DNA from: an archaeon
GTDB lineage: Archaea; Nanobdellota; Nanobdellia; Pacearchaeales; GW2011-AR1
Assembly (NCBI GenBank): GCA_018653485.1
Contig: JABHZE010000001.1
Span: 68,603 to 132,602, forward strand
Length of the DNA: 64,000 bases
Direction: 5' to 3'
The position numbers and the translations under genes were made by a program. Each line of letters begins with the position of its first letter. Within the stretch, counting starts at the first letter, position 1. Below, one piece after another: positions 1-20,558 of this stretch. The notes under the pieces were generated by a model. The model saw only the letters and a list, made by a program, of their open reading frames with translations, was not told where the DNA came from and did no database searches.

Positions 1-18
1 ACCTTTTTTTCTTTTCTT

Positions 19-825
19 TTATCTCTCTTCAAAAATATTATTGTTATCAACAATATTATTATTATTATTATTATGAATATAATCGCTCTCCTTTATATTC
101 TTTTTTCTTCTTGAATATATAAGTTCAACACCAACCATTAGCACAACAGCGACAATGATTATGATTTTATAGTTATTTTTGCCTGCGCCGATTACGGCGC
201 CTGTGATAGAGAATTTGTTTGTAGTTTCTTCGTTAGTAATGGGTTCTATAATGTTAGTATTCTCTTCAACATCTGGTTCAACAACTTCCAGAGTAACATC
301 TACATCATTTGAAATAGTATTATTTGCAGGTGGTAAGGCAGTTCCGCCAGAGCTTGAGCCCGATGAGGATTGGGGTGGTGCAGAGGGGGTGCCTGGTTCT
401 TCGATTGGAGTTTCAGCAATAGTTAATTTAACCCAAACTCCCATTTGAACAATTGAATTTCCTTGTTGTTCTTGACTAAGTAAAATAATCCCATGATATT
501 CTCCAATCACAGAACCACTCATACAAACTTCAACTTCTCTCTCATCAACATCCAACTCATTATCATAATTAATATTTATTCCATGATCAACAGCTGAACT
601 TTCAAAAAGTCCAGACTTCCATTCAACATCAACACTCTCCGCCCATTTATCAGTTATAGATATAGATGAGTCAGAATTAACATTTATTATTTGACAAATT
701 TCTTCTCCAACATTAATTTCTTCAACAATTTCAGATGGAGAAAAACCAGTAGCTAATACAAATCCAGTATTAACTAATATTATTAAAAAAAATACAAAAA
801 TAAAAAAAATAAAATTTTGTTTCAT
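19..825 (-). CDS. Secreted, C-terminally membrane-anchored surface protein, function unknown
   Basis: 268-aa ORF. Hydrophobic N-terminal signal-like segment (FIFFIFVFFLIILVNTGFVLA), Pro/Ser/Gly linker, C-terminal TM helix (IIIIVAVVLMVGVELI) then RRKK and an Asn-rich tail. A 3-nt gap to the upstream ORF 829-1305 suggests co-transcription. Confidence 0.55.
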   Translation of the reverse strand: MKQNFIFFIFVFFLIILVNTGFVLATGFSPSEIVEEINVGEEICQIINVNSDSSISITDKWAESVDVEWKSGLFESSAVDHGININYDNELDVDEREVEVCMSGSVIGEYHGIILLSQEQQGNSIVQMGVWVKLTIAETPIEEPGTPSAPPQSSSGSSSGGTALPPANNTISNDVDVTLEVVEPDVEENTNIIEPITNEETTNKFSITGAVIGAGKNNYKIIIIVAVVLMVGVELIYSRRKKNIKESDYIHNNNNNNIVDNNNIFEER

Positions 826-1784: not shown

Positions 1785-1806
1785 ATTGAAACTTGCCTTA
1801 TTTCAT

Positions 1807-2511
1807 ATGGCAAAGTTTTTAGATACATTAGGAATTTCTAATGAGTTAGGTCAGATAATTAAAAATGCTAAAGAGAAATTAGTAATTATAAGCCCCTATC
1901 TCCAAATAAGCGATAGATTTAAAGAAATGCTTGAAGATCAAGACAGAATGAGAATTTATATTGATTTAATTTATCGTAAAAGCAATCTTCAACCTCAAGA
2001 AAGCAATTGGTTAAAGGGTTTGACCTCAGTTAGAACACGTATTTGTAAAACATTGCATGCAAAATGTTATTTGAATGAGAATAAGGCCTTGATCACTTCA
2101 ATGAATTTTTATGAATTTTCTCAGGTTAATAATGAAGAAATGGGAATTGTTGTAAATAAAGATGAAGATCCAGAATTATATGAGGACATTAGTAATGAGG
2201 TTCAAAGATTAATCAGAAATAATGATGAAATAAAAGTGTCTGTAGAAAAAGTTCTTCCAAGAAAAAATAATATTCAAGTTGAAAAAGTAGAAAATGTCAA
2301 AAGAATTACTAATTTTGAGGGTCATTGTATTCGGTGCGATGATAAGATTAAGGTAAACGTTAAAAGCCCATTATGTCCAAAATGTTATAAAAGTTGGAGT
2401 AAATATAATGATAAAGATTATGAAGAAAAATTTTGTCATATGTGCGGTCAAGAAAATAAATCTTCTTTAAATAAGCCAATTTGTTATAGTTGTTATAAGA
2501 AAAATAAATAA
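1807..2511 (+). CDS. Single-HKD phospholipase D-family (Nuc-like) nuclease with two C-terminal CxxC...CxxC zinc ribbons
   Basis: HKD motif LHAKCYLNENKALITSMNF. C-terminus HCIRCDD...CPKCYKSW...FCHMCGQ...ICYSCYKK. Start moved to the ATG at 1807 on TATA spacing; the maximal ORF starts at 1786. Confidence 0.8.
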   Translation: MAKFLDTLGISNELGQIIKNAKEKLVIISPYLQISDRFKEMLEDQDRMRIYIDLIYRKSNLQPQESNWLKGLTSVRTRICKTLHAKCYLNENKALITSMNFYEFSQVNNEEMGIVVNKDEDPELYEDISNEVQRLIRNNDEIKVSVEKVLPRKNNIQVEKVENVKRITNFEGHCIRCDDKIKVNVKSPLCPKCYKSWSKYNDKDYEEKFCHMCGQENKSSLNKPICYSCYKKNK

Positions 2512-2540: not shown

Positions 2541-4115
2541 ATGAGGTTGAATAGAAAAATGGAAAATAAAGGCCTCTCTAAAACTGTAGGAGAAACTTAT
2601 AGATTGTACACAGAAGGATTTTCAATTCCAGAAATTGCAAATCAAAGAGGTTTTGTGGAATCGACAATATATTCTCATTTTGCAGATTTAATATTAAACA
2701 AATTAATTGAATTAGATAAGATTGTTGAAAAAGAGAAAAAAGAGGAGATATTAGAAATATTAAAAGAAAATGATGTTGAAGGTATAAAAGAAATAAAAGA
2801 GTTGGTTAATGAGTCTATAACTTATGGGGAGATAGTTTGTGTGTTGGCATTTGTAAAATTACAGGGAAATAATATATTAGCTAACATAGTGGCTCCAGAT
2901 ATGAACAAATCTCAAAAGTCTGAGATATTCACTGTGGGAGAACTTACTAAATATATAAAAAATCTATTAGAATCTGATAAAAGATTATCTAATCTATTTG
3001 TTAAAGGAGAAATATCAAATCTAACTTTCCATAACTCTGGTCACACCTATTTTAGTCTAAAAGATAAAGAAAGTCAAATTAGGTGTGTTTTATTTAGACG
3101 GGTTGGAGAAGATCTTAAATTTAATCTTAAACATGGGATGAAAATTATTGTAAGAGGAGATATTGAAATTTATAAGCCACGCGGAGAATATAGTATAATT
3201 GTTGAAGAAATTCAACCAGATGGACTAGGCTCCTTAAATCTAGCATTTATTCAGCTTAAAGAGAAATTAGAAAAAGAAGGGTTATTTCGAAATGAATACA
3301 AAAAAGTATTTCCTAAGTTTCCTAAAACAATTGGAATCATTACATCGCCTACTGGGGCAGCAGTCCAGGATATGTTAAATGTTATAAAAAGACGTTACCC
3401 AGTAGTTAAAGTGTTAATAGCTCCAACACTTGTACAAGGAGAAGGGGCAACTAATTCAATTATTCAATCAATTAAACTAATGAATGAAGCCTCAGACGTT
3501 GATTCAATCATCTTAGGAAGAGGCGGAGGATCACTTGAAGATTTATGGTGTTTTAATGAAGAATCAGTTGCAAGAGCCATATTTGAATCAAAAATTCCCA
3601 TAATTTCTGCAGTAGGACATGAAACAGATTTTACAATTGCTGACTTTGTTGCAGATTATAGGGCTCCAACACCTTCGGCTGCTGCTGAAAAAATTGTTCC
3701 AGATATTAAAGAAATACAAGAACATATCAATCACTTAGAAATAAGATGTGCCAAGTCCCTTTATCATAAATTAAGACTTTGTAGATCTAATTTAAATCAA
3801 ATCATGAATAAATATGTTTTCAAAAAACCTACTGAATTTATACACTCAAACTATAGAGAATTAGACCAAATTGCATATCAATTACAAAATAATATTAAAA
3901 GAATGATTGAAACGAAAAGAAAAGATTTAGAAATTAATGAATCAAAAATTATCGCATTAAATCCTCAAGCAATCTTAGAAAGAGGTTATAGTATTGTAAT
4001 GAATAAAGATAAAATATTAATAAACTCATCAGATGTAGAAAAAGGAGAAGATATAAATATAATATTGCATGGAGGTAAAATAGATGCCAAAGTTAAAAAA
4101 ACCTGGAAAAACTAA
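2541..4115 (+). CDS. xseA: Exodeoxyribonuclease VII large subunit with an extra ~125-aa N-terminal HTH domain
   Basis: OB-fold start FTVGELTKYIKNLLE...LFVKGEISN. Core motifs IGIITSPTGAAVQD, GRGGGSLEDLWCFN, ISAVGHETDFTIADFVADYRAPTPSAAAE. The N-terminal extension contains FSIPEIANQRGFVESTIYSHFADLI (HTH_40-like). An alternative ATG lies at 2559. Confidence 0.85.
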   Translation: MRLNRKMENKGLSKTVGETYRLYTEGFSIPEIANQRGFVESTIYSHFADLILNKLIELDKIVEKEKKEEILEILKENDVEGIKEIKELVNESITYGEIVCVLAFVKLQGNNILANIVAPDMNKSQKSEIFTVGELTKYIKNLLESDKRLSNLFVKGEISNLTFHNSGHTYFSLKDKESQIRCVLFRRVGEDLKFNLKHGMKIIVRGDIEIYKPRGEYSIIVEEIQPDGLGSLNLAFIQLKEKLEKEGLFRNEYKKVFPKFPKTIGIITSPTGAAVQDMLNVIKRRYPVVKVLIAPTLVQGEGATNSIIQSIKLMNEASDVDSIILGRGGGSLEDLWCFNEESVARAIFESKIPIISAVGHETDFTIADFVADYRAPTPSAAAEKIVPDIKEIQEHINHLEIRCAKSLYHKLRLCRSNLNQIMNKYVFKKPTEFIHSNYRELDQIAYQLQNNIKRMIETKRKDLEINESKIIALNPQAILERGYSIVMNKDKILINSSDVEKGEDINIILHGGKIDAKVKKTWKN

Positions 4116-12292: not shown

Positions 12293-15200
12293 TTAAACAA
12301 ACCACTCACTCAAAATTATTTCTTCGGGCTTATCCTTATTATCCTCTTCATTTTCCTCTATCCTATATTTCTTAAAAAACTCTTTTGGAATATTCCCCAT
12401 TAAGAATGTATACGCTTCAACATTATCTAATTTAACGACTTTCTTCAAAGATTTTGAGTCAGGAATCTTTTTTTCTTTTAACAAATCTTCAATTTTTTCC
12501 AACATATCTAATTCTTTTTCATACAATCTTTTATCTTTTTTCATTAATACTATTTTATTCATAATTATCTTTGCATTCCCTGTTAATCCCGCACCCATTT
12601 TCTTTTTTGGTTTACAATCTTCCAAAAATTTCTCCCTTAACTTAGCAAACTTTTTATAAAAATCTTTTTTATCTAAATTAATTGATTTTTCATTTTTTTC
12701 TGCTTTAATAATTTCGATTATTTTCTCAAAATCTATCACTTCTCCAACCTCATTTTTATCATAGGAATATGCGAATTTAAAATTCCCTTTCTTAAAAAAA
12801 CTAAAAAGCTCTGAATTTTTCTTTTTTCTTCCAAGTTTTATTTTCCCAGGCAAACTTTCAATTTTCTTAAATAATTCTCGATTATTTTCCCTTATATTTC
12901 TAATAAACATTCTTTCAGTATCTTCCATTGTTGTTAAAGAATCTTCTTGTTGAACAGAAGACTGAAGACGTTGAAAAAATTCTTTATGACTAAGAATTTC
13001 CTCATCTTCAAAAAGAAGTTTAGAATCATTCCCTAGAAGCCTAATAAATGCCTTTATTTTTTCTTCTGCATTTTCTTGCAATTTTATTTTATCATTAATT
13101 TTTTTTGCAGGAAAGAAATTATAGGTATTAATTTCATTAAAAGGTAAATCTTTTGCAACCCTATCAATTCTTCCAACTCTTTGAATGACTCTAACGGGAT
13201 TCCAAGGAATATCATAATTTAAAACTTTATTTGCACGATTTAAATTAACTCCTTCAGATAAAGTATCTGTTGAAATTAAAACATTATAATCGTTTTTTTG
13301 ATTCTTTGAAAAATGATCAAAATTTTCAATAACTTCTTCCTTTAATTTTTCTCCAGAAGAACCTGAAAAAGTTATAACATCCTTTCTATTGAGTTCTTTT
13401 TTTAGATAATCAATAGTATCTTTTGATTCACTAAAAACAATTATTTTCTTTTCATTTTCTGGAAGTTTGTTCAAAAAATCCCTAAAAGAATTTAATTTTG
13501 GGTCAATTTTAACTTTTTCCCATATTTCTTGAATCTTTTTTAAATTATTCAAATCAGATTCTAATAATTTCCTAAAACTTGGTTTAAATTCTTTTTTGAG
13601 ATATTTTTTACCTTTTTCATTTTGAACTAATTTTTCTATCTCCTCCCACCTTTCACCTTCAATAAAATCAAACACCTTTGCATAATAATCCTCACTTACA
13701 ACAATAAATCCTTTTTCATCATAAGATTTTATTGAGGCTTCATAATGCCTTATAAATCTCTTAACAGATTCTCTAAATGCATGAAAACTGCTTTCTAGTC
13801 TCTTTGCTACAAGAATTTTCATAAAATGTTTAATATTCTTCTGAGGAGTTTTCTTGTTTTCATCTATATCTTTTTTTAAGTAAAGTATTGGAGCATACCT
13901 ACAATACTTCATATTCTTTTCATCTAAAAGTAATTCCAAGGTTTCTTCAAAAATTCCATCTAATTTTTCATCAAATTCATAATATAATGTCTTAGGAGTA
14001 TTAACTTTTGGAAATCTAAGGCCTTGTTTATCCATATCTTGAGAAAATAATTTTTTAATATCCGACCTAGTCCTTCTTATCATGACCTTTCTTAAGATCC
14101 TATTTCTTATATCATCAGAAATTTTTTTAAGTTCATCCAAATATTCTTTTCGAGATATTTTTTCTTCGTTTAATTCTTTTTTTAGTTTTACCCTTTTAGA
14201 TCTAATCTCTGTAAAATATCTATCTAAATCTTTAATGCTTGGATGAAATTTAGCATTCTTCATCGGCGTAAATAATGCAATTTGATTTTTTAAATCATCT
14301 GGGCGATTATTTAGAGGGGTAGCAGTAACTAAAATAACATTTTTCCCTCTACAAATAGCAGAAAGTTGAGAATACATTTTAGTATTTTCATTTCTAAATC
14401 TATGGGCTTCATCAATTACAATATTATCATAATCATCTACACCCTTTCTTAGAATTTTATCTAATTTACCAATAGATTCAAATTCTCCTTTATTTCTAAG
14501 AATTTCAAAACTATCAAAGACATTTTGCCAAGATCCGGGATTTTCTTTATTTACTAACATTGGAGGTGCAATTACAAGAGTTTTTCCAGGGAGCTCTTTC
14601 ATTAACATTGTAGTTATAAATGTTTTACCCAAACCAACTACATCTGAAATAAAAACACCACCATATTTATTTAATATTTTTCTTGCCCTTCCCACTGCAT
14701 CTTTTTGATAATCTAAATCCATTAAATGAGTTGGGGCAGAAATCTTTCTTTCTTCAAAATCCAATTCATCTTTAAAATACTCTTGAAGGAATTTTAAATA
14801 AAATTCATAAGGAGTTATATCTTCTCTAAATTGACTATTTTTTTCTATAGTTTGAACATGTAATTCAGATACATCTACAGAGTGGTTTTCCCATAAATCA
14901 TCAAAGATTTTTTTAATTTCTATGTAATCTTCCTTATCTTGTAAAAAAACATTAAATTCAATATTATCTTCCAACCCCGCTTTAGTCAAATTACTTGAAC
15001 CCGTTATAACTGTCCCTGGTTGTAATTGCCGAGAATTATTTTTATCATAAGTCATAATGTAAACCTTCGCATGAGTCCTATTCTTACAAGCTCTAATTTT
15101 TAATTTTCTACTTTTTATCCAATTCTTTAATTTATTTACTCCCTCTTCAACATCTAACTTAAACTCTGCAGAATCAATATCTTTCAATGTTTGTTTTTTA

Positions 15201-15448
15201 TGCTCTTTTTTTATTTCTTTTTCTGTAAGTTCATTAATGGATTTTATTTCATCATAGAATTTATCATCCATAGCGATTCCAGTAAGAATCTTAATCTCTT
15301 CTACATTTTCTAGATAATCATGTATTTTGTAAAAACCGCTTTTGTAAAGATATGCTACAAGACAATCAAATTCCTTACTGGAAGATAATTGTTCAGTCAA
15401 TATTGGAGAAAGTTTATTTTCTTCCTGGTTAGTTATAAATGATCCCAT
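12293..15448 (-). CDS. PLD (HKD) nuclease domain fused to an SNF2-family helicase/translocase
   Basis: 1051 aa. N-terminal HKD motif THAKVYIM...GSSNLTKAGL. SNF2 motifs DVVGLGKTF, IDEAHRFRN, LVTATPLNN, STDTLSEGVNL, NYDIPWNPVRVIQRVGRIDR. About 300 aa of unknown C-terminal tail. Confidence 0.85.
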   Translation of the reverse strand: MGSFITNQEENKLSPILTEQLSSSKEFDCLVAYLYKSGFYKIHDYLENVEEIKILTGIAMDDKFYDEIKSINELTEKEIKKEHKKQTLKDIDSAEFKLDVEEGVNKLKNWIKSRKLKIRACKNRTHAKVYIMTYDKNNSRQLQPGTVITGSSNLTKAGLEDNIEFNVFLQDKEDYIEIKKIFDDLWENHSVDVSELHVQTIEKNSQFREDITPYEFYLKFLQEYFKDELDFEERKISAPTHLMDLDYQKDAVGRARKILNKYGGVFISDVVGLGKTFITTMLMKELPGKTLVIAPPMLVNKENPGSWQNVFDSFEILRNKGEFESIGKLDKILRKGVDDYDNIVIDEAHRFRNENTKMYSQLSAICRGKNVILVTATPLNNRPDDLKNQIALFTPMKNAKFHPSIKDLDRYFTEIRSKRVKLKKELNEEKISRKEYLDELKKISDDIRNRILRKVMIRRTRSDIKKLFSQDMDKQGLRFPKVNTPKTLYYEFDEKLDGIFEETLELLLDEKNMKYCRYAPILYLKKDIDENKKTPQKNIKHFMKILVAKRLESSFHAFRESVKRFIRHYEASIKSYDEKGFIVVSEDYYAKVFDFIEGERWEEIEKLVQNEKGKKYLKKEFKPSFRKLLESDLNNLKKIQEIWEKVKIDPKLNSFRDFLNKLPENEKKIIVFSESKDTIDYLKKELNRKDVITFSGSSGEKLKEEVIENFDHFSKNQKNDYNVLISTDTLSEGVNLNRANKVLNYDIPWNPVRVIQRVGRIDRVAKDLPFNEINTYNFFPAKKINDKIKLQENAEEKIKAFIRLLGNDSKLLFEDEEILSHKEFFQRLQSSVQQEDSLTTMEDTERMFIRNIRENNRELFKKIESLPGKIKLGRKKKNSELFSFFKKGNFKFAYSYDKNEVGEVIDFEKIIEIIKAEKNEKSINLDKKDFYKKFAKLREKFLEDCKPKKKMGAGLTGNAKIIMNKIVLMKKDKRLYEKELDMLEKIEDLLKEKKIPDSKSLKKVVKLDNVEAYTFLMGNIPKEFFKKYRIEENEEDNKDKPEEIILSEWFV

Positions 15449-15455
15449 GTTCTTA

Positions 15456-16190
15456 TTAAGATATTTTAATTTTTAAACTATCCTTTTCTTCTCCAATCTG
15501 CCAAAAATACATATCTATGATTTTCATAGGAGTATAATCTCCTGCATTATACTTTTCTTTTAAGTCTCCCCTTAATTCATTGATATCTTTTTTATACTTA
15601 TCATAAAATCCTAATAATTCCTCAAAAGATTTATTTTTATTAAAATTCTTTCTGATCTTCTTCTCATCACTCAAACCCTCCATAAAAAATCGGTCATATG
15701 CAGGAATGCACCCCATGGTGCCTAATAAAATCTTTGTGATTAAAGTATAAGAAATTTGATTTCCTTGCAAATATCTTTTTTTAGTTCCTTCCAAATCCGG
15801 ATGATTTTTAGTGGTCTCTTTAATTTTTATAAGTACATTTTCAATTTCTTTATAAATTTTAGAAAATTTTTCTATTAAATCTTCGCTTTTATTTAAATTA
15901 TCTTCAATTTCCCAAAGAATAGAATATTCTTTTTTTAAAATAATTCCAACTATCTCTTTAAAAATAGTATAATCTTTTTGCAATATGAAACTAGAACCTC
16001 TATACATTCCCCAACTAGCTAAATAAAATGCTAAATGTAATTGAGCTAAATCTAATTCTTCTTTATCTATTTCTTTATCCTTAATTTTCTTAAAGAAATT
16101 GTAACAATGTTCCCAGGATTTATAACGGTGATCTGGAATAGAATTTATACTTTGATAAAATTTTTCTACATTATTGGTGATTTCATTCAT
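15456..16190 (-). CDS. Hypothetical protein, middle gene of the nuclease-helicase operon
   Basis: 244-aa ORF. 8-nt overlap with the upstream gene and a 7-nt gap to the downstream gene. Conserved-looking block LHLAFYLASWGMYRGSSFIL, but no motif I can name. Confidence 0.6.
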   Translation of the reverse strand: MNEITNNVEKFYQSINSIPDHRYKSWEHCYNFFKKIKDKEIDKEELDLAQLHLAFYLASWGMYRGSSFILQKDYTIFKEIVGIILKKEYSILWEIEDNLNKSEDLIEKFSKIYKEIENVLIKIKETTKNHPDLEGTKKRYLQGNQISYTLITKILLGTMGCIPAYDRFFMEGLSDEKKIRKNFNKNKSFEELLGFYDKYKKDINELRGDLKEKYNAGDYTPMKIIDMYFWQIGEEKDSLKIKIS

Positions 16191-17373
16191 CTTCTTTGTC
16201 CTTCCGCTTACTTAAACTTAACCTAAAACTCTTCTCTAACTCAACCATTTTCTTTACATCTTTATCAACTTCTCCCTTGATTACTTCGCTATTAACCTTT
16301 GCATAACTTAACATATTAAAATCATCCCACAATCCTTTATCCTTCAATAACTTAACAAGTTTTTCTTTATCTTCTCCCTCAGGCATAATTATCTTATCAG
16401 ATTCTTTTACAGAACATTTCTTATTACTCCCATAAACAACATCTATATCAAACTGCTTTGCATAAGCAATTAATTTTTCTTTAAAATCTGCATCTTGTTT
16501 TTTCAACTCCCCTAATTTCATCTTAATCTCAGAAAACTCATCAACTAATTTAACACCTTCATCTTCCTTGAATTTCTCAACTTCCTTAATTTTTTCAAGT
16601 TCTGCTTCATGTTTAAAACTAGGACACATTGCCTTATAATCACAATAATCACAAAGCGCATTCTTATTTCTTGGAAATTCTGTTGCAGATTCTATCTCTT
16701 TAATCTTATCACAAACTTCTTTCTGCAATTTCTCTAATTCCTCATCACTTCTTTCAGACACAGCATCTTTATTAAAAGCAAGCATATGCCAAACTAATTT
16801 AACAGATTTAGCATCCTTAAATTTATTTTTAACCCAAATAGAATAAAGTGCAAGTTGTCTATCATTATCTGCTTCTTCTTGATCTTTCATTCTAGAATTT
16901 GTTTTATAATCGCAAACAAAATAATTCCCCTCAGAATCACAGCCCAATTTATCAATTCTAACATGCCATTTGTTCCCATCAGGCAAAGTCATTCTATCTG
17001 TAGTTTCTAATCCTAATATGGTAAGTTGGTCAAAAGGTTCCATTCTATCATAATAATCAGAAATAAATTGCTCTCCCATTTTCCTATAATTCTCAGAATT
17101 AACACCTTCTTTCTCTGCTTTCACAATCAAAATATCATTAGAATATCTTCTCTCCCATAATTCATTATAATCTTTAATCAAATTTGCTTTAGATATTTCC
17201 TTTTTAAATTTTATATCTTTATATAAACCATCCAATGCCTCATGAACAATACTCCCTAAGAAAGCTTCAATAGTATCAGGAATTTCTGGTCTAATCTTAT
17301 CAATATACCTCAATTTATATTGGTAAGGGCAATTTTCATAAGTGCCTAATCGTGAGTGTGAATAACATGTCAT
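16183..17373 (-). CDS. Cas4/AddB-like PD-(D/E)XK nuclease with a 1+3 Cys Fe-S cluster pattern and a charged C-terminal extension
   Basis: One N-terminal Cys (YENCPYQYKLRY) plus LCDYCDYKAMCP later, the Cas4-type C...CxxC-x5-C arrangement. The D/E-x-K core region is plausible (FVCDYKT). Start set to the ATG at 17373 (MTCYSHSRLG), 28 nt below a TATA box; the maximal ORF runs to 17460. Confidence 0.7.
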   Translation of the reverse strand: MTCYSHSRLGTYENCPYQYKLRYIDKIRPEIPDTIEAFLGSIVHEALDGLYKDIKFKKEISKANLIKDYNELWERRYSNDILIVKAEKEGVNSENYRKMGEQFISDYYDRMEPFDQLTILGLETTDRMTLPDGNKWHVRIDKLGCDSEGNYFVCDYKTNSRMKDQEEADNDRQLALYSIWVKNKFKDAKSVKLVWHMLAFNKDAVSERSDEELEKLQKEVCDKIKEIESATEFPRNKNALCDYCDYKAMCPSFKHEAELEKIKEVEKFKEDEGVKLVDEFSEIKMKLGELKKQDADFKEKLIAYAKQFDIDVVYGSNKKCSVKESDKIIMPEGEDKEKLVKLLKDKGLWDDFNMLSYAKVNSEVIKGEVDKDVKKMVELEKSFRLSLSKRKDKEDE

Positions 17374-17397
17374 CTTACTAACAAATACCAACCCAAC

Positions 17398-17405
17398 TAT
17401 ATAAA
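17398..17405 (-). promoter_or_regulatory. TATA box (minus-strand TTTATATA) for the Cas4-like nuclease operon
   Basis: Plus-strand TATATAAA at 17398-17405, centred about 28 nt upstream of the ATG at 17373. Confidence 0.45.
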
Positions 17406-17477
17406 TCTTTCTAATTGTAACCCCTTTATAGTTACAGCAGAGTATAAGAACTTCTACCAAATCACTTCAAGAACCCC

Positions 17478-17906
17478 TCATTTATACTTTTGTTTCTCAA
17501 ACATCTTCTTAAAAGTCATTCTTTTTTCAGCTTCACAAAAAGTTATTTTAAATTGTTCAAAAAAGCCTGCACGCCCTATAATAATATTATCACTTTTTTC
17601 ATTAATAAGGATTGGCAAGGTATATTCGCGTTCCTCTCTATTTTTTCCAAAAATAATATTAATATAACCTAAGTCAACTTTTACTTTATCATTAGATATT
17701 CCTGTTAATTCATCTTCTCCGATTTTTTTTACCCCTAAAAAATCTGCAACTTCTTTTGGGAGTACAGTTAAATCTGAACCACTATCTAAAATTCCAAAAA
17801 AACCATACTCTTTATTATTTCCAATTAATGTGAATGGAATAAGCGGTCTATGGGTCTTTCTTCCAGACTTTAATAAAACTGGCTTATATTTAAAAGAAAA
17901 ACTCAT
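17478..17906 (-). CDS. Retropepsin-like aspartyl protease
   Basis: 142 aa. Catalytic-type motif GILDSGSDLTVLP and C-terminal IIGRAGF, typical of single-domain retropepsin-like proteases. Confidence 0.65.
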   Translation of the reverse strand: MSFSFKYKPVLLKSGRKTHRPLIPFTLIGNNKEYGFFGILDSGSDLTVLPKEVADFLGVKKIGEDELTGISNDKVKVDLGYINIIFGKNREEREYTLPILINEKSDNIIIGRAGFFEQFKITFCEAEKRMTFKKMFEKQKYK

Positions 17907-17907
17907 T

Positions 17908-18114
17908 TTAAAAAATTAAAAGATCTGTTTCTGGAATTTTTCCAATTAAAGGTTTTTTGTTAGGATAATTTTTTTTAACCCCTTCCATTAACTCTCCAAA
18001 AGATTTATTTTCTAAGACAACAGAGTTATCAATTATTGCAATCCATTTCCCAGAATATTTCATCAAATCCTCCTCAGATAATGATTCAAAATTAGAATTT
18101 ATTTGTTGTAACAT
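17908..18114 (-). CDS. Small DUF5678-like protein paired with the aspartyl protease
   Basis: 68 aa. GKWIAIIDNSVVLENKSFGELMEGVKKNYPNKKPLIGKIP resembles the small partner often found next to archaeal retropepsin-like genes. Its stop is 1 nt from the next ATG. Confidence 0.5.
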   Translation of the reverse strand: MLQQINSNFESLSEEDLMKYSGKWIAIIDNSVVLENKSFGELMEGVKKNYPNKKPLIGKIPETDLLIF

Positions 18115-18620: not shown

Positions 18621-19343
18621 ATGTCACAAGACAATCTAGAAAATCTAATGGGAAACCAACCACGTTTTGGAATATCTAGAAGAGGATTCATAGGAACAGG
18701 TTTAGCACTTTTAGGAGGACTTACTGCAGGATCACTCACAGCAAATTACATCTCTAATTCTCAAGAAAATACTCAAACAGAAGAATATACTTATGAAAGA
18801 TTTTATGAATCATTTTCAACAAGCAAGGAACTTGAAGGACAAACATTAACAGAAGAGCAAAAATTAGAATTAAAAGAGACATGGAATAAATGTTCCCCAA
18901 GTTTAAGAAAAACTGCATGTTATTTTGCAGAAAATATGGATAAAGATGATGATGGAAAATGCCTAGAATTTCTTGAAAAGGAATACACTTTTAGAAGATT
19001 TGTACAAAGTCTTGGAGAAGAAAGAACAAGTAAAATAGATATGAGAAGATTAAGAAAAGATTGGGATGAAAATTATTCAGTTACTATCAGGGCAGGATTA
19101 TGTGAAACTTATGAGGGTGGTTTTAATGAATTAACCGACACAAAATTATTCAGAGGCATAGATAATATAGATGTTAAAGCTGTTCAAGAAGAATGGAACA
19201 ATGAAAAGGCATGGAAACTTGAATATACTCCTAACGGAGAAATCTCTGAAGAAGATAAAATATTCTTTTATTTAATGGAAAAATTAGGGCCTGACTTTCT
19301 AAAAAACGGAATAGATCTGGGATTTGGTCTCAAGATGTATTAA
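18621..19343 (+). CDS. Acidic exported or anchored protein with a twin-arginine-like signal (paralog 1)
   Basis: 240 aa. N-terminus GISRRGFIGTGLALLGGLTAGS (SRRxF plus h-region). Shares its first ~25 nt and the SN(S/P)QENTQ(T/P)EEYT(Y/F)E block with the next gene. Confidence 0.6.
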   Translation: MSQDNLENLMGNQPRFGISRRGFIGTGLALLGGLTAGSLTANYISNSQENTQTEEYTYERFYESFSTSKELEGQTLTEEQKLELKETWNKCSPSLRKTACYFAENMDKDDDGKCLEFLEKEYTFRRFVQSLGEERTSKIDMRRLRKDWDENYSVTIRAGLCETYEGGFNELTDTKLFRGIDNIDVKAVQEEWNNEKAWKLEYTPNGEISEEDKIFFYLMEKLGPDFLKNGIDLGFGLKMY

Positions 19344-19358
19344 AAACAAATTAATAAA

Positions 19359-20006
19359 ATGACACAAGACAATCTAGAAAACCGAACACAAGAACAACTT
19401 CAACCAAAAATATCCAGAAGAAGTTTCTTTGTTGGAATGGGTTTAGCAACACTAACAGGATTTACTGCAGGAGCAGGGGCAGTAAGTTATTTCTCAAATC
19501 CTCAAGAAAACACTCAACCAGAAGAATATACTTTTGAAAAAGCTTATGATTTAATGGCAGAAGAAGGAGAAGAAAAATTCAATCAATTAACAGAAGAAGA
19601 AAAACAAAAAGCAGAAGAATTCTGGAATCAATTATCTCCATCTAGAAAAAGAATTTTAGAATTATCTACAGATGATAACTACACCCCTCAATTAAATGAA
19701 TTTAAAAAAGCATTAGGCCCAGAAAGATTAAAAGATGTCTCTGAAGAAAAATTAGAAGAAGCATGGGCAGATTATAATAAATATACAAAAACAACTGCAA
19801 TTGAAGCCTATAGTTATTCTGATGAAACAATAAAAAAAGAATATCCTTTAGATAGATTGGAAATGATAGCAAAAGAATTAAACACCCGTACTCCAGAACC
19901 TAACCAAGCCCATAGTAGTTTTGAATTAACTAATGATGCTATTCCTTGGATAGAGCTAGGTTATTGGACAGCAAGAGATGCATTATTTTTCTCAATACTC
20001 CCTTAA
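19359..20006 (+). CDS. Acidic exported or anchored protein with a twin-arginine-like signal (paralog 2)
   Basis: 215 aa. KISRRSFFVGMGLATLTGFTAGAGA. Tandem paralog of 18621-19343. Confidence 0.6.
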   Translation: MTQDNLENRTQEQLQPKISRRSFFVGMGLATLTGFTAGAGAVSYFSNPQENTQPEEYTFEKAYDLMAEEGEEKFNQLTEEEKQKAEEFWNQLSPSRKRILELSTDDNYTPQLNEFKKALGPERLKDVSEEKLEEAWADYNKYTKTTAIEAYSYSDETIKKEYPLDRLEMIAKELNTRTPEPNQAHSSFELTNDAIPWIELGYWTARDALFFSILP

Positions 20007-20027
20007 TTTTAAATATTTCTTTACTAA

Positions 20028-20558
20028 CTAATCCCTATCATCCCCAAATTCTGGTTTCCAACACTTTCCTTTCCCACCATCCTCACCGTCTCCTCCATCA
20101 TCATCATCATCTCCACAACCATCACCAAAACAACCCCCACAACCAATACCATAATCACCACCCCTATTACCACCACCATCCCACCCCCATAAATCCTTCC
20201 CAACATCACCACACCTATAACCACTCCCCTCATCACCTCTCTCACCACTATCTTCTCCACTCCTCCCACCTCGCCCAACAAACCTCATCACCTTCTCCAA
20301 CTTATCTGCCTTTTCTCTCAACCCATCAATATCAAACCATGTTTCTGCTTCAAGCCTTTCAACATCAGGCACACGAATAAAACATCTTGAAGCTTTATTA
20401 TTTCCAGAATTTAAAACAAAAGAAGAACCATCCAAATTTATACAATCCCATCCCTCATCAACCTTACTAACATAACAAATATCCTCAACACCTTTTAATC
20501 CATGATAAAACCCTTCAACAAATTCATTCCCATCATAATCTAAATATTCAACAGCCAT
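20028..20558 (-). CDS. Hypothetical protein with a Gly/Asp/Cys-rich low-complexity C-terminal tail
   Basis: 176-aa ORF. Ordered N-terminal half, then GRGGRSGEDSGERGDEGSG...GIGCGGCFGDGCGDDDDDGGDGEDGGKGKC. It is the longest of three overlapping ORFs and is contiguous with the next minus-strand gene (1-nt gap). Confidence 0.5.
   Translation of the reverse strand: MAVEYLDYDGNEFVEGFYHGLKGVEDICYVSKVDEGWDCINLDGSSFVLNSGNNKASRCFIRVPDVERLEAETWFDIDGLREKADKLEKVMRFVGRGGRSGEDSGERGDEGSGYRCGDVGKDLWGWDGGGNRGGDYGIGCGGCFGDGCGDDDDDGGDGEDGGKGKCWKPEFGDDRD

Follow-up and report, generated by a model that had tools for sequence, protein, structure and literature searches.

A 64-kb stretch of contig JABHZE010000001.1 (the window) carries three closely packed minus-strand genes, here called g1, g2 and g3, which are located in a defence island and lie next to a large DNA methyltransferase (MTase) gene that converges on g3 (Table 1). 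A preliminary description of this DNA had proposed that the three genes form an undescribed nuclease-helicase defence system and had confined it to the interval 12293-17460, leaving out the MTase, the constant partner of g3. Its account of the gene layout was confirmed in the sequence: there are three minus-strand open reading frames (ORFs) with an 8-nt overlap and a 7-nt gap, and all of the quoted motifs (ENCPYQY, CDYCDYKAMC, HAKVYIM, GSSNLT, GLGKT, DEAHRFRN, TATPLNN and QRVGRIDR) are present in the translations. The neighbouring genes of the island also support the defence context that it had suggested.

The ORF of g1 extends over 16183-17460, with a likely ATG start at 17373 that yields a protein of 396 aa. 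As read from the sequence, the stop of g1 and the start of g2 share the 8 nt ATGAATGA (16183-16190), and the stop of g2 is separated from the ATG of g3 by 7 nt (15449-15455). The TATA box reported upstream of g1 is present, 24 nt from the ATG. The position of this TTTATATA motif would fit an archaeal TATA box serving a leaderless or short-leader mRNA; an archaeal promoter is a reasonable reading because the closest relatives of g1, g2 and g3 come from metagenome-assembled genomes of Nanoarchaeota, Woesearchaeota and other DPANN archaea, and because the G+C content of the window is 25-35%.

Table 1. Coordinates of the features discussed, numbered along the window; domains of g3 are given in residues.
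Feature	Position	Strand	Remarks
Stand-alone phospholipase D (PLD) protein	1786-2511	+	Weak DrmC and MkoB matches
Exonuclease VII large-subunit homologue (HTH-XseA fusion)	2541-4115	+	Extra N-terminal helix-turn-helix domain (HTH_40)
Coiled-coil protein, 188 aa	4390-4956	-	Overlapped by the stop of the 1154-aa helicase gene
DUF2726/DUF559 (Vsr-like endonuclease) and RecQ-like DEAD helicase, 1154 aa	4919-8383	-	PADLOC DpdF E=1e-91, PsyrT 3e-64
Eco57I/MmeI-type gamma N6-adenine DNA MTase, 1175 aa	8552-12079	+	Convergent with g3; stop 213 nt from g3 stop
ORF with two hydrophobic segments, 66 aa	12076-12276	+	Uncertain gene; start overlaps MTase stop (ATGA); fills the convergent gap between MTase and g3
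g3, PLD and Swi2/Snf2 protein, 1051 aa	12293-15448	-	
g3, N-terminal HKD/PLD nuclease	residues ~1-200		Catalytic H126/K128; GSSN 150-153
g3, Swi2/Snf2 motor	residues ~240-780		Walker A GLGKT 272-276; DEAH 346-349; motif VI QRVGRIDR 756-763
g3, C-terminal region	~270 aa		Conserved in the family
g2, all-alpha protein of an unnamed family, 244 aa	15456-16190	-	Variable slot between g1 and g3
g1, PDDEXK_1 / Cas4-AddB-like nuclease	16183-17373	-	Domain residues 1-265, followed by a ~130-aa charged tail
TATA-like box TTTATATA	17405-17398	-	24 nt before the ATG of g1 (17373); putative promoter for g1-g2-g3, read from the sequence

g3 and the adjoining methyltransferase

Three Pfam profiles matched g3 above their gathering scores, namely PLDc_2 (E=4.6e-10, residues 107-186), SNF2-rel_dom (3e-09) and Helicase_C (2e-21). 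The PADLOC model 'HKD+Snf2' spans residues 9-999 of the protein, and phrog_26785 matches it with E=5e-163. The domain calls made earlier, an HKD/PLD nuclease fused to SNF2 in g3 and a Cas4/AddB-like nuclease in g1, thus passed the Pfam searches above the cutoffs. The fusion itself is not unusual, as the effector of the BR type-2/MANTIS systems described below has the same architecture and the family of g3 comprises more than 7,600 full-length relatives (7,642 proteins at E<=1e-10). Almost all of the best 120 of these 7,642 relatives are 1,050-1,080 aa long and have the same Pfam architecture; they are distributed over many bacterial and archaeal phyla and share 41-47% identity with g3, apart from the closest three. 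Phage records searched with g3 gave partial helicase matches only.

In an alignment of 22 members of the family, residues H126, K128, G150, S151, S152 and N153 and all the helicase motifs were invariant, D143 was nearly so, and much of the C-terminal region was likewise invariant. Only one PLDc_2 stretch is found in g3, which corresponds to a single HKD motif per chain. Single-HKD PLD nucleases such as Nuc, BfiI and SauUSI need to form a dimer to build one active site, and g3 would therefore be expected to dimerise. No domain for the recognition of modified bases was detected in g3 with Pfam or NCBIfam profiles.

The MTase was matched by the Pfam family Eco57I (E=9e-37) and by the PADLOC model REase_MTase_IIG (E=2e-227). 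Its motif I (DPAVGSGAF, residues ~481-489) and motif IV (NPPY, ~749-752) are both conserved. The PDB matches were BseCI, CamA and the BrxX/PglX methyltransferases, and the C-terminus aligns with the specificity regions of BseCI and CamA, resembling a target-recognition domain; TaqI_C is present in relatives. The protein thus agrees with type IIG restriction-modification (RM) enzymes in its gamma-class N6-adenine motifs and its specificity region. The first ~130 residues are also conserved, yet no invariant D..(D/E)xK was seen when an alignment of 50 sequences was inspected for this motif. The N-terminal consensus reads D-x5-L-x-K, and the copy in the window has Q and H/R in place of that D and K. 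Therefore, the nuclease is plausibly supplied in trans, and we infer from these sequence features that the MTase itself does not cut DNA and that g3 supplies the nuclease.

The neighbours of g3 were counted in 85 loci (80 from metagenomes plus the loci numbered L088-L092), of which 71 were informative in having at least 600 nt downstream of g3. A homologue of the MTase was the very next gene after g3 in 53 of the 71 informative loci, often with a 4-nt overlap, and lay within three genes of g3 in 66 of them; the full-length homologues in this census matched with E from 1e-130 to 1e-233. In L088-L092, an Eco57I/MmeI_Mtase/TaqI_C protein of 1,084-1,200 aa adjoins g3 in all five loci and is directly downstream of it in four, with a 4-nt overlap in three. 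The MTase also adjoins the g3 homologue of a Clostridiaceae locus (L013), at 15 nt. On viral contigs, it was found within two genes of the g3 relative in 16 of 17 cases, including relatives that are only 25-30% identical. The convergent orientation seen in the window is shared by its closest relatives, L088 and L093.

In contrast, g1-like genes were present in 3 of the 85 g3 loci and g2-like genes in none. A sensitive search that combined the g1 nuclease domain, six divergent Cas4/PDDEXK/DUF2779 seeds and an iterated profile placed a Cas4/PDDEXK-like gene of any kind no further than six genes from g3 in 7 of the 85 loci, in varying positions and on either strand. The remaining neighbours were shifting defence-island genes (for example AAA_21, AbiEii, NYN, DUF4411 and Mrr). 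Given the linkage of the MTase in metagenomic and viral loci and the rarity of g1 and g2, the conserved unit is taken to be g3 plus the MTase. The proposal of an undescribed three-gene system was not supported, as the g3 family is common and already has PADLOC and PHROG models, its constant partner is the MTase, and the full g1-g2-g3 order was found again only in the close relative L011. A lack of co-occurrence in other genomes, which the preliminary description had itself named as a refutation, was thus largely borne out.

Inverted partial copies of the MTase, 279-296 aa long, were observed beside or just downstream of the full-length gene on three viral contigs (L260, L266 and L267), with E from 6e-19 to 6e-46 against the MTase of the window. 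This arrangement suggests invertible specificity cassettes and phase-variable target recognition, and such cassettes have been reported for Eco57I-type genes (PMC9881135). In the same study, a PLD/SNF coding sequence (CDS) is listed that directly precedes a Cj0031-like Type II RM CDS, so that the pair has been seen before; solitary Cj0031-like CDSs are listed there as well as ones beside PLD/SNF CDSs.

g1 and g2

The g1 protein matched PF12705 (PDDEXK_1) with E=8e-30 and 105 bits (cutoff 22) over model positions 3-247 of 247. Its cysteines follow a 1+3 pattern, with one in ENCPYQY and three in CDYCDYKAMC, which makes a putative Fe-S cluster site. The PD-(D/E)XK fold and the arrangement of one N-terminal and three C-terminal cysteines are shared with Cas4 and AddB. 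However, g1 differs from Cas4 in its score against the cas4 model TIGR00372 (33.5 bits, below the cutoff of 65), in its additional ~130-aa charged tail and in its surroundings, since no Rfam match to CRISPR repeats and no CRISPR-like tandem array was found in the 64-kb window. Other Rfam matches and tRNA genes were likewise absent from it. The window proteins scanned for known families were the 16 ORFs of the first ~25 kb, and no Cas family was found among them besides the sub-threshold Cas4 matches of g1. A link to CRISPR through the PADLOC model 'C3a139', read as 'Cas3 alternative' after its sibling C3a193 ('poss. alt. Cas3'), was also considered and rejected on account of the missing array.

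A total of 2,457 relatives of g1 were found, and none on viral contigs. The top 120 clusters show 68-79% identity along all 390-400 aa, charged tail included, and several are named 'RecB family exonuclease'. When the seven orthologues from the window, L010, L011, L088, L252, L254 and L255 were compared, six different downstream arrangements were seen. In L088, whose g3 is 72% identical to that of the window, the slot between g1 and g3 (960-1706) encodes a protein of 248 aa that is not related to g2 and matches no Pfam family. The orthologues of L252, L254 and L255 are each ~70% identical to g1. The first stands alone among genes for replication factor C (RFC) subunits and Phe-tRNA synthetase, without g2 or g3; the second has an 8-nt overlap with an unrelated 169-aa gene, which is followed by an MmeI-type enzyme; and the third precedes genes for a 295-aa protein, a methyltransferase and MazE. 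Comparison of g2 with the other slot proteins (248 aa in L088, 169 aa in L254 and 295 aa in L255) gave hhalign probabilities below 1%. The slot after g1 appears to exchange cargo. From the six arrangements and the slot proteins unrelated to g2, g1 looks like a conserved gene of the DPANN lineage with a variable slot behind it, and not like a dedicated subunit of g3. The idea that g1 marks one fixed chromosomal hotspot was also considered and was not demonstrated, as the window and L252, L254 and L255 share only g1 and the DUF5678/140-aa pair.

The preliminary description could name no motif in g2, and profile, PDB and Foldseek searches yielded no identity either. Nothing above threshold was obtained in Pfam and no match at all in PADLOC, NCBIfam or PHROGs, and searches of PDB sequences with the single sequence and with a profile gave nothing below E=0.08. 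The AlphaFold2 (AF2) model of g2 is all-alpha (pLDDT 93.6, pTM 0.92), and no fold match to it was found by Foldseek in the PDB or in BFVD (best E=0.45 and 0.32, respectively; TM ~0.2). The family is large, with 6,206 relatives that come from archaea and from many phyla of bacteria, and has 29 invariant residues in four motifs, polar ones included. Some members are fused to DUF7662 or DUF7669, which are themselves uncharacterised and absent from the searchable literature.

The neighbours of g2 were heterogeneous across 80 genome loci. On viral contigs, 79 loci were found, several of them beside integrases, serine recombinases, terminases or HTH regulators. A g3-like gene of full architecture (PLD plus SNF2) was present in only 2 of 83 loci of the g2 family (L011 and L013). 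In the archaeal clade closest to the g2 of the window, five of seven distinct loci (the window, L001, L003, L010 and L011) have a PDDEXK_1 gene at most two genes upstream, and these genes belong to at least two PDDEXK_1 subfamilies. In L006 (5404-11561), the g2 relative has an AddB-like PDDEXK_1 gene (866 aa) on one side and an AddA-like UvrD-PDDEXK gene (949 aa) on the other; the junctions are a 4-nt overlap and a 0-nt gap. Type III-like restriction genes adjoin this cluster, and genes for Hjc and an integrase follow further along the locus. g2 is a widely roaming mobile accessory gene that travels as cargo.

A two-gene reading and its alternatives

The functional unit is probably a two-gene, ATP-dependent restriction-modification-like module made of the MTase and g3. 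This reading is supported by the linkage of the two genes, by their conserved motifs, by the fold matches of g3 to Swi2/Snf2 motors, RapA and SauUSI, and by the effector/marker pair known from BR type-2 systems. The MTase would use its C-terminal specificity region to read a short sequence and would methylate adenine (NPPY), which would mark the host DNA as self, and unmodified sites on incoming DNA would license g3. After dimerisation to form one PLD active site, g3 would track along double-stranded DNA by means of its Swi2/Snf2 motor and would cut without a metal ion; tracking and cutting are proposed because of what has been proposed for MtsC and MtsD of MANTIS and what has been demonstrated for SauUSI. 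In this DPANN sub-lineage, the MTase has been turned to its convergent position, and g3 would be transcribed behind g1 and g2. These last two proteins might assist, for example by processing the DNA ends made by g3, but do not belong to the conserved system.

Four-gene systems with the same pair have been described. BR type 2, a BREX-related type, combines an ATPase (DUF499), a DUF3780 protein and an N6-methyltransferase with a helicase that has an N-terminal HKD endoDNase fused to Swi2/Snf2 (PMC12839542, 2026); in that study, the HKD-endoDNase plus Swi2/Snf2 protein and the N6-MTase are the effector/marker pair of the type. The small DUF3780 protein is reported from 98% of BR type-2 loci. One BR type-2 system, MANTIS (formerly Gao_RL, or Gao_29), was characterised in a 2026 preprint (bioRxiv 10.64898/2026.09.23.753747). 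There, MtsC hemimethylates 6-bp sites only if it is loaded by the AAA+ protein MtsA, with the help of MtsB (its domain is DUF3780 in PMC12839542 and is called DUF3870 in the preprint); all four proteins are required for restriction, and MtsD, like SauUSI, forms a dimer that has one PLD site (H122).

The likeness to MANTIS, which was judged by architecture, lies in the combination of an N6-adenine MTase with an effector that has an N-terminal HKD/PLD, a Swi2/Snf2-type superfamily 2 (SF2) motor and C-terminal domains. Each chain has a single HKD motif, with the catalytic histidine at H122 in MtsD and H126 in g3, and the restriction-like logic, with methylation as the self mark, would be the same. 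The difference lies in MtsA (DUF499 AAA+) and MtsB, both required for methylation and restriction in MANTIS. No DUF499 was found in the 16 window proteins or in the Pfam lists of L088-L092, and this family is outside the 25 most frequent families of the 133 accessory proteins from the 85 g3 loci; neither was DUF3780 (DUF3870) found in the scanned window neighbours or in L088-L092. In addition, the NCBIfam PLD anti-phage model NF042964 gives g3 118 bits against a cutoff of 1100. The most fitting description of the core is a loader-free variant of the MANTIS/BR type-2 kind of ATP-dependent restriction-like system. Two things remain new: the two-gene form, which is uncharacterised, and the fold of g2, which is an orphan.

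Several points weigh against this two-gene module. No experimental characterisation or name for the two-gene form was found in the literature that could be searched. The analogy may fail at recognition, as the MTase of MANTIS needs its AAA+ loader MtsA and none is present here, and the nuclease activity of MtsD has not yet been reconstituted in vitro (bioRxiv 10.64898/2026.09.23.753747). The putative absence of a nuclease from the MTase comes from motif inspection only, and the best PADLOC model for this protein is a type IIG restriction endonuclease (REase)-MTase. The AF2 model of g3, for which 22 sequences were used, has low overall confidence (pLDDT 66, pTM 0.39), and its fold matches were for that reason used at the domain level only. 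Finally, the tight coupling of g1, g2 and g3, which recurs in L011 and L088, argues that at least g1 is tied to g3 in this lineage.

A different partition of the genes, possible but rather unlikely, is that g1 and g2 form a unit of their own, in which an Fe-S PD-(D/E)XK nuclease and an orphan-fold partner or regulator act as an add-on near restriction systems and are merely co-transcribed with g3. The PDDEXK_1 genes upstream of g2 in its closest archaeal clade point in this direction, as do the pairs, which adjoin type I RM genes in two loci (L003 and L010) and type III-like genes in another (L006); the invariant residues of g2 suggest a specific binding or catalytic site. However, this archaeal sample is small and partly related by descent. 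Outside the closest clade, PDDEXK_1 made up 3 of the 42 immediately upstream same-strand genes of g2 that were scanned, and it was within two genes in about 1 of 75 bacterial g2 loci. The families upstream and downstream of g2 are otherwise heterogeneous, g2 is also common at prophage ends, and the orthologues of g1 are mostly without g2.

In the manner of its relative between the AddB-like and AddA-like genes of L006, g2 might, in this DPANN lineage, be a physical adaptor or regulator that couples g1 to g3, giving an undescribed three-protein end-processing machine on top of the loader-free MANTIS-like module. We regard this as improbable; if it were true, g2 would define a new nuclease-associated protein family with more than 6,000 members.

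Slightly more doubtful still is an autonomous, methylation-independent defence machine made of the three proteins g1, g2 and g3. The translational coupling behind a single upstream TATA-like box, the g1-g2-g3 order of L011 and the order g1, unrelated gene, g3 of L088 would agree with it, as would the Cas4/DUF2779 gene directly upstream of g3 in L092, the PDDEXK_1 or DUF2779 genes near g3 in L089 and L090, and the parallel order of the L006 cluster. Against it stand the scarcity of g1-like, g2-like and any Cas4/PDDEXK-like genes in the 85 g3 loci, the unrelated protein that fills the g2 slot in L088, the closest relative with this region intact, the g1 orthologue that lies among RFC and tRNA-synthetase genes without g2 or g3, and the MTase that almost always accompanies g3.

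SauUSI works as a dimer with one PLD site and cuts DNA during ATP-driven translocation. This type IV enzyme (PDB 7CLG) resembles g3 in joining a PLD nuclease and an SF2 helicase-like motor in one chain, and in the Foldseek search with the g3 model, which returned Swi2/Snf2 remodelers and RapA (~1,010 aligned columns), it ranked third (E=1.3e-12, 819 columns). In contrast to g3, SauUSI carries a target-recognition domain of its own for modified cytosine and lacks an MTase partner. The C-terminal region of g3 is a different one, g3 is linked to a MTase, and the TM-scores were low (0.19-0.24) with the low-confidence g3 model. It is equally doubtful that g3 is a stand-alone SauUSI-like type IV enzyme whose neighbour is an independent and complete type IIG RM enzyme, two systems that travel together: the fold match, the PADLOC label 'Type IIG restriction enzyme-methyltransferase' and the solitary Cj0031-like CDSs would suit such a pair, but the 93% adjacency, the many 4-nt overlaps and a linkage that persists down to 25% identity argue for one operon under joint selection, the N-terminus of the MTase lacks, on motif inspection, an invariant PD-(D/E)XK triad, g3 shows no detectable modified-base recognition domain, and a type IV enzyme next to an adenine MTase risks self-restriction unless their specificities differ.

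The resemblance to DISARM that had been pointed out stands at the level of domains. Class 1 DISARM (DrmA, DrmB, DrmC, DrmD and DrmMI) also has an SNF2 protein (DrmD), a PLD protein (DrmC) and an Eco57I-like MTase (DrmMI), whereas PLD and SNF2 are fused in g3. The scores of g3 are below the cutoffs for DrmD (NF038317, 136.9 bits against 610, over residues 338-872 only) and for DrmC (17.5 against 133), and neither DrmA nor DrmB (DUF1998 helicase core) was found in the scanned window neighbours, the sole DrmA match being a generic helicase core in g3.

Type ISP and type III RM enzymes recognise short asymmetric sites and communicate over long distances by translocation or sliding. They resemble the pair formed by the MTase and g3 in combining one MTase/specificity function with one ATP-dependent SF2 motor-nuclease. 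They differ in having PD-(D/E)XK or Mrr nucleases and a helicase of another clade, and type ISP enzymes are single polypeptides; here, a HKD/PLD nuclease and a Swi2/Snf2 motor are used and the functions are split over two genes.

A label from a known system was also sought for g1, g2 and g3 as a group and rejected, since PADLOC, NCBIfam, Pfam and PHROGs gave domain-level matches only. The matches to DrmD, DrmC, DpdE, BrxH, Zac and HmaA are partial helicase or PLD matches far under the curated cutoffs. The Hma system, in which Snf2 carries a C-terminal PD-(D/E)XK nuclease (PMC11232893), was set aside because the type of nuclease and its position differ and because HmaA matches only residues 658-766 of g3.

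If the module of the MTase and g3 is real, this very widespread pair, whose members number in the thousands among bacteria, archaea and proviruses, would be a minimal relative of MANTIS and the BREX-related systems. It would combine methylation-based discrimination between self and non-self with motor-driven cleavage, without the AAA+ loader of MANTIS, and would offer a simple model for how a MTase licenses a separate Swi2/Snf2-PLD nuclease. For annotation, it means that tools will call the MTase a solitary 'type IIG RM' enzyme and leave its real partner, g3, unassigned. The other two genes are of interest in their own right: g2 as a large conserved family that has no Pfam model and whose fold matches nothing in the PDB or the viral structure library, present in defence islands and at prophage ends, and g1 as a strongly conserved nuclease of DPANN archaea that is followed by a slot of varying gene content.

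The surrounding defence island

Among the other genes of the island, the one for the 1154-aa DUF2726/DUF559-RecQ-like protein appears to be a helicase-nuclease defence gene in its own right. The HTH_40-XseA gene starts 30 nt after the stand-alone PLD gene, and the two make an unusual pair at the island's edge. Small hydrophobic ORFs such as the one that follows the MTase in the window are also present after the MTase in L088 and L089, and neither their sequence nor their presence was conserved.

Directly upstream of g1, a DUF5678 protein of 68 aa and a 142-aa protein are encoded as a pair (17478-18114, minus strand). The 142-aa protein has weak aspartyl-protease and PDC-M52B matches. The pair recurs in L255 (10042-10678; E=1e-13 and 1e-23), where it lies downstream of the g1 orthologue, and it may be a small mobile two-gene cassette.

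Further along, the region of 18621-20006 (plus strand) and 19946-20558 (both strands) holds two paralogues of 215-240 aa with twin-arginine-like signal sequences (RRGFIGTGLALLGG / RRSFFVGMGLATL), which are followed by a low-complexity stretch rich in His, Gly and Asp that is open on both strands.

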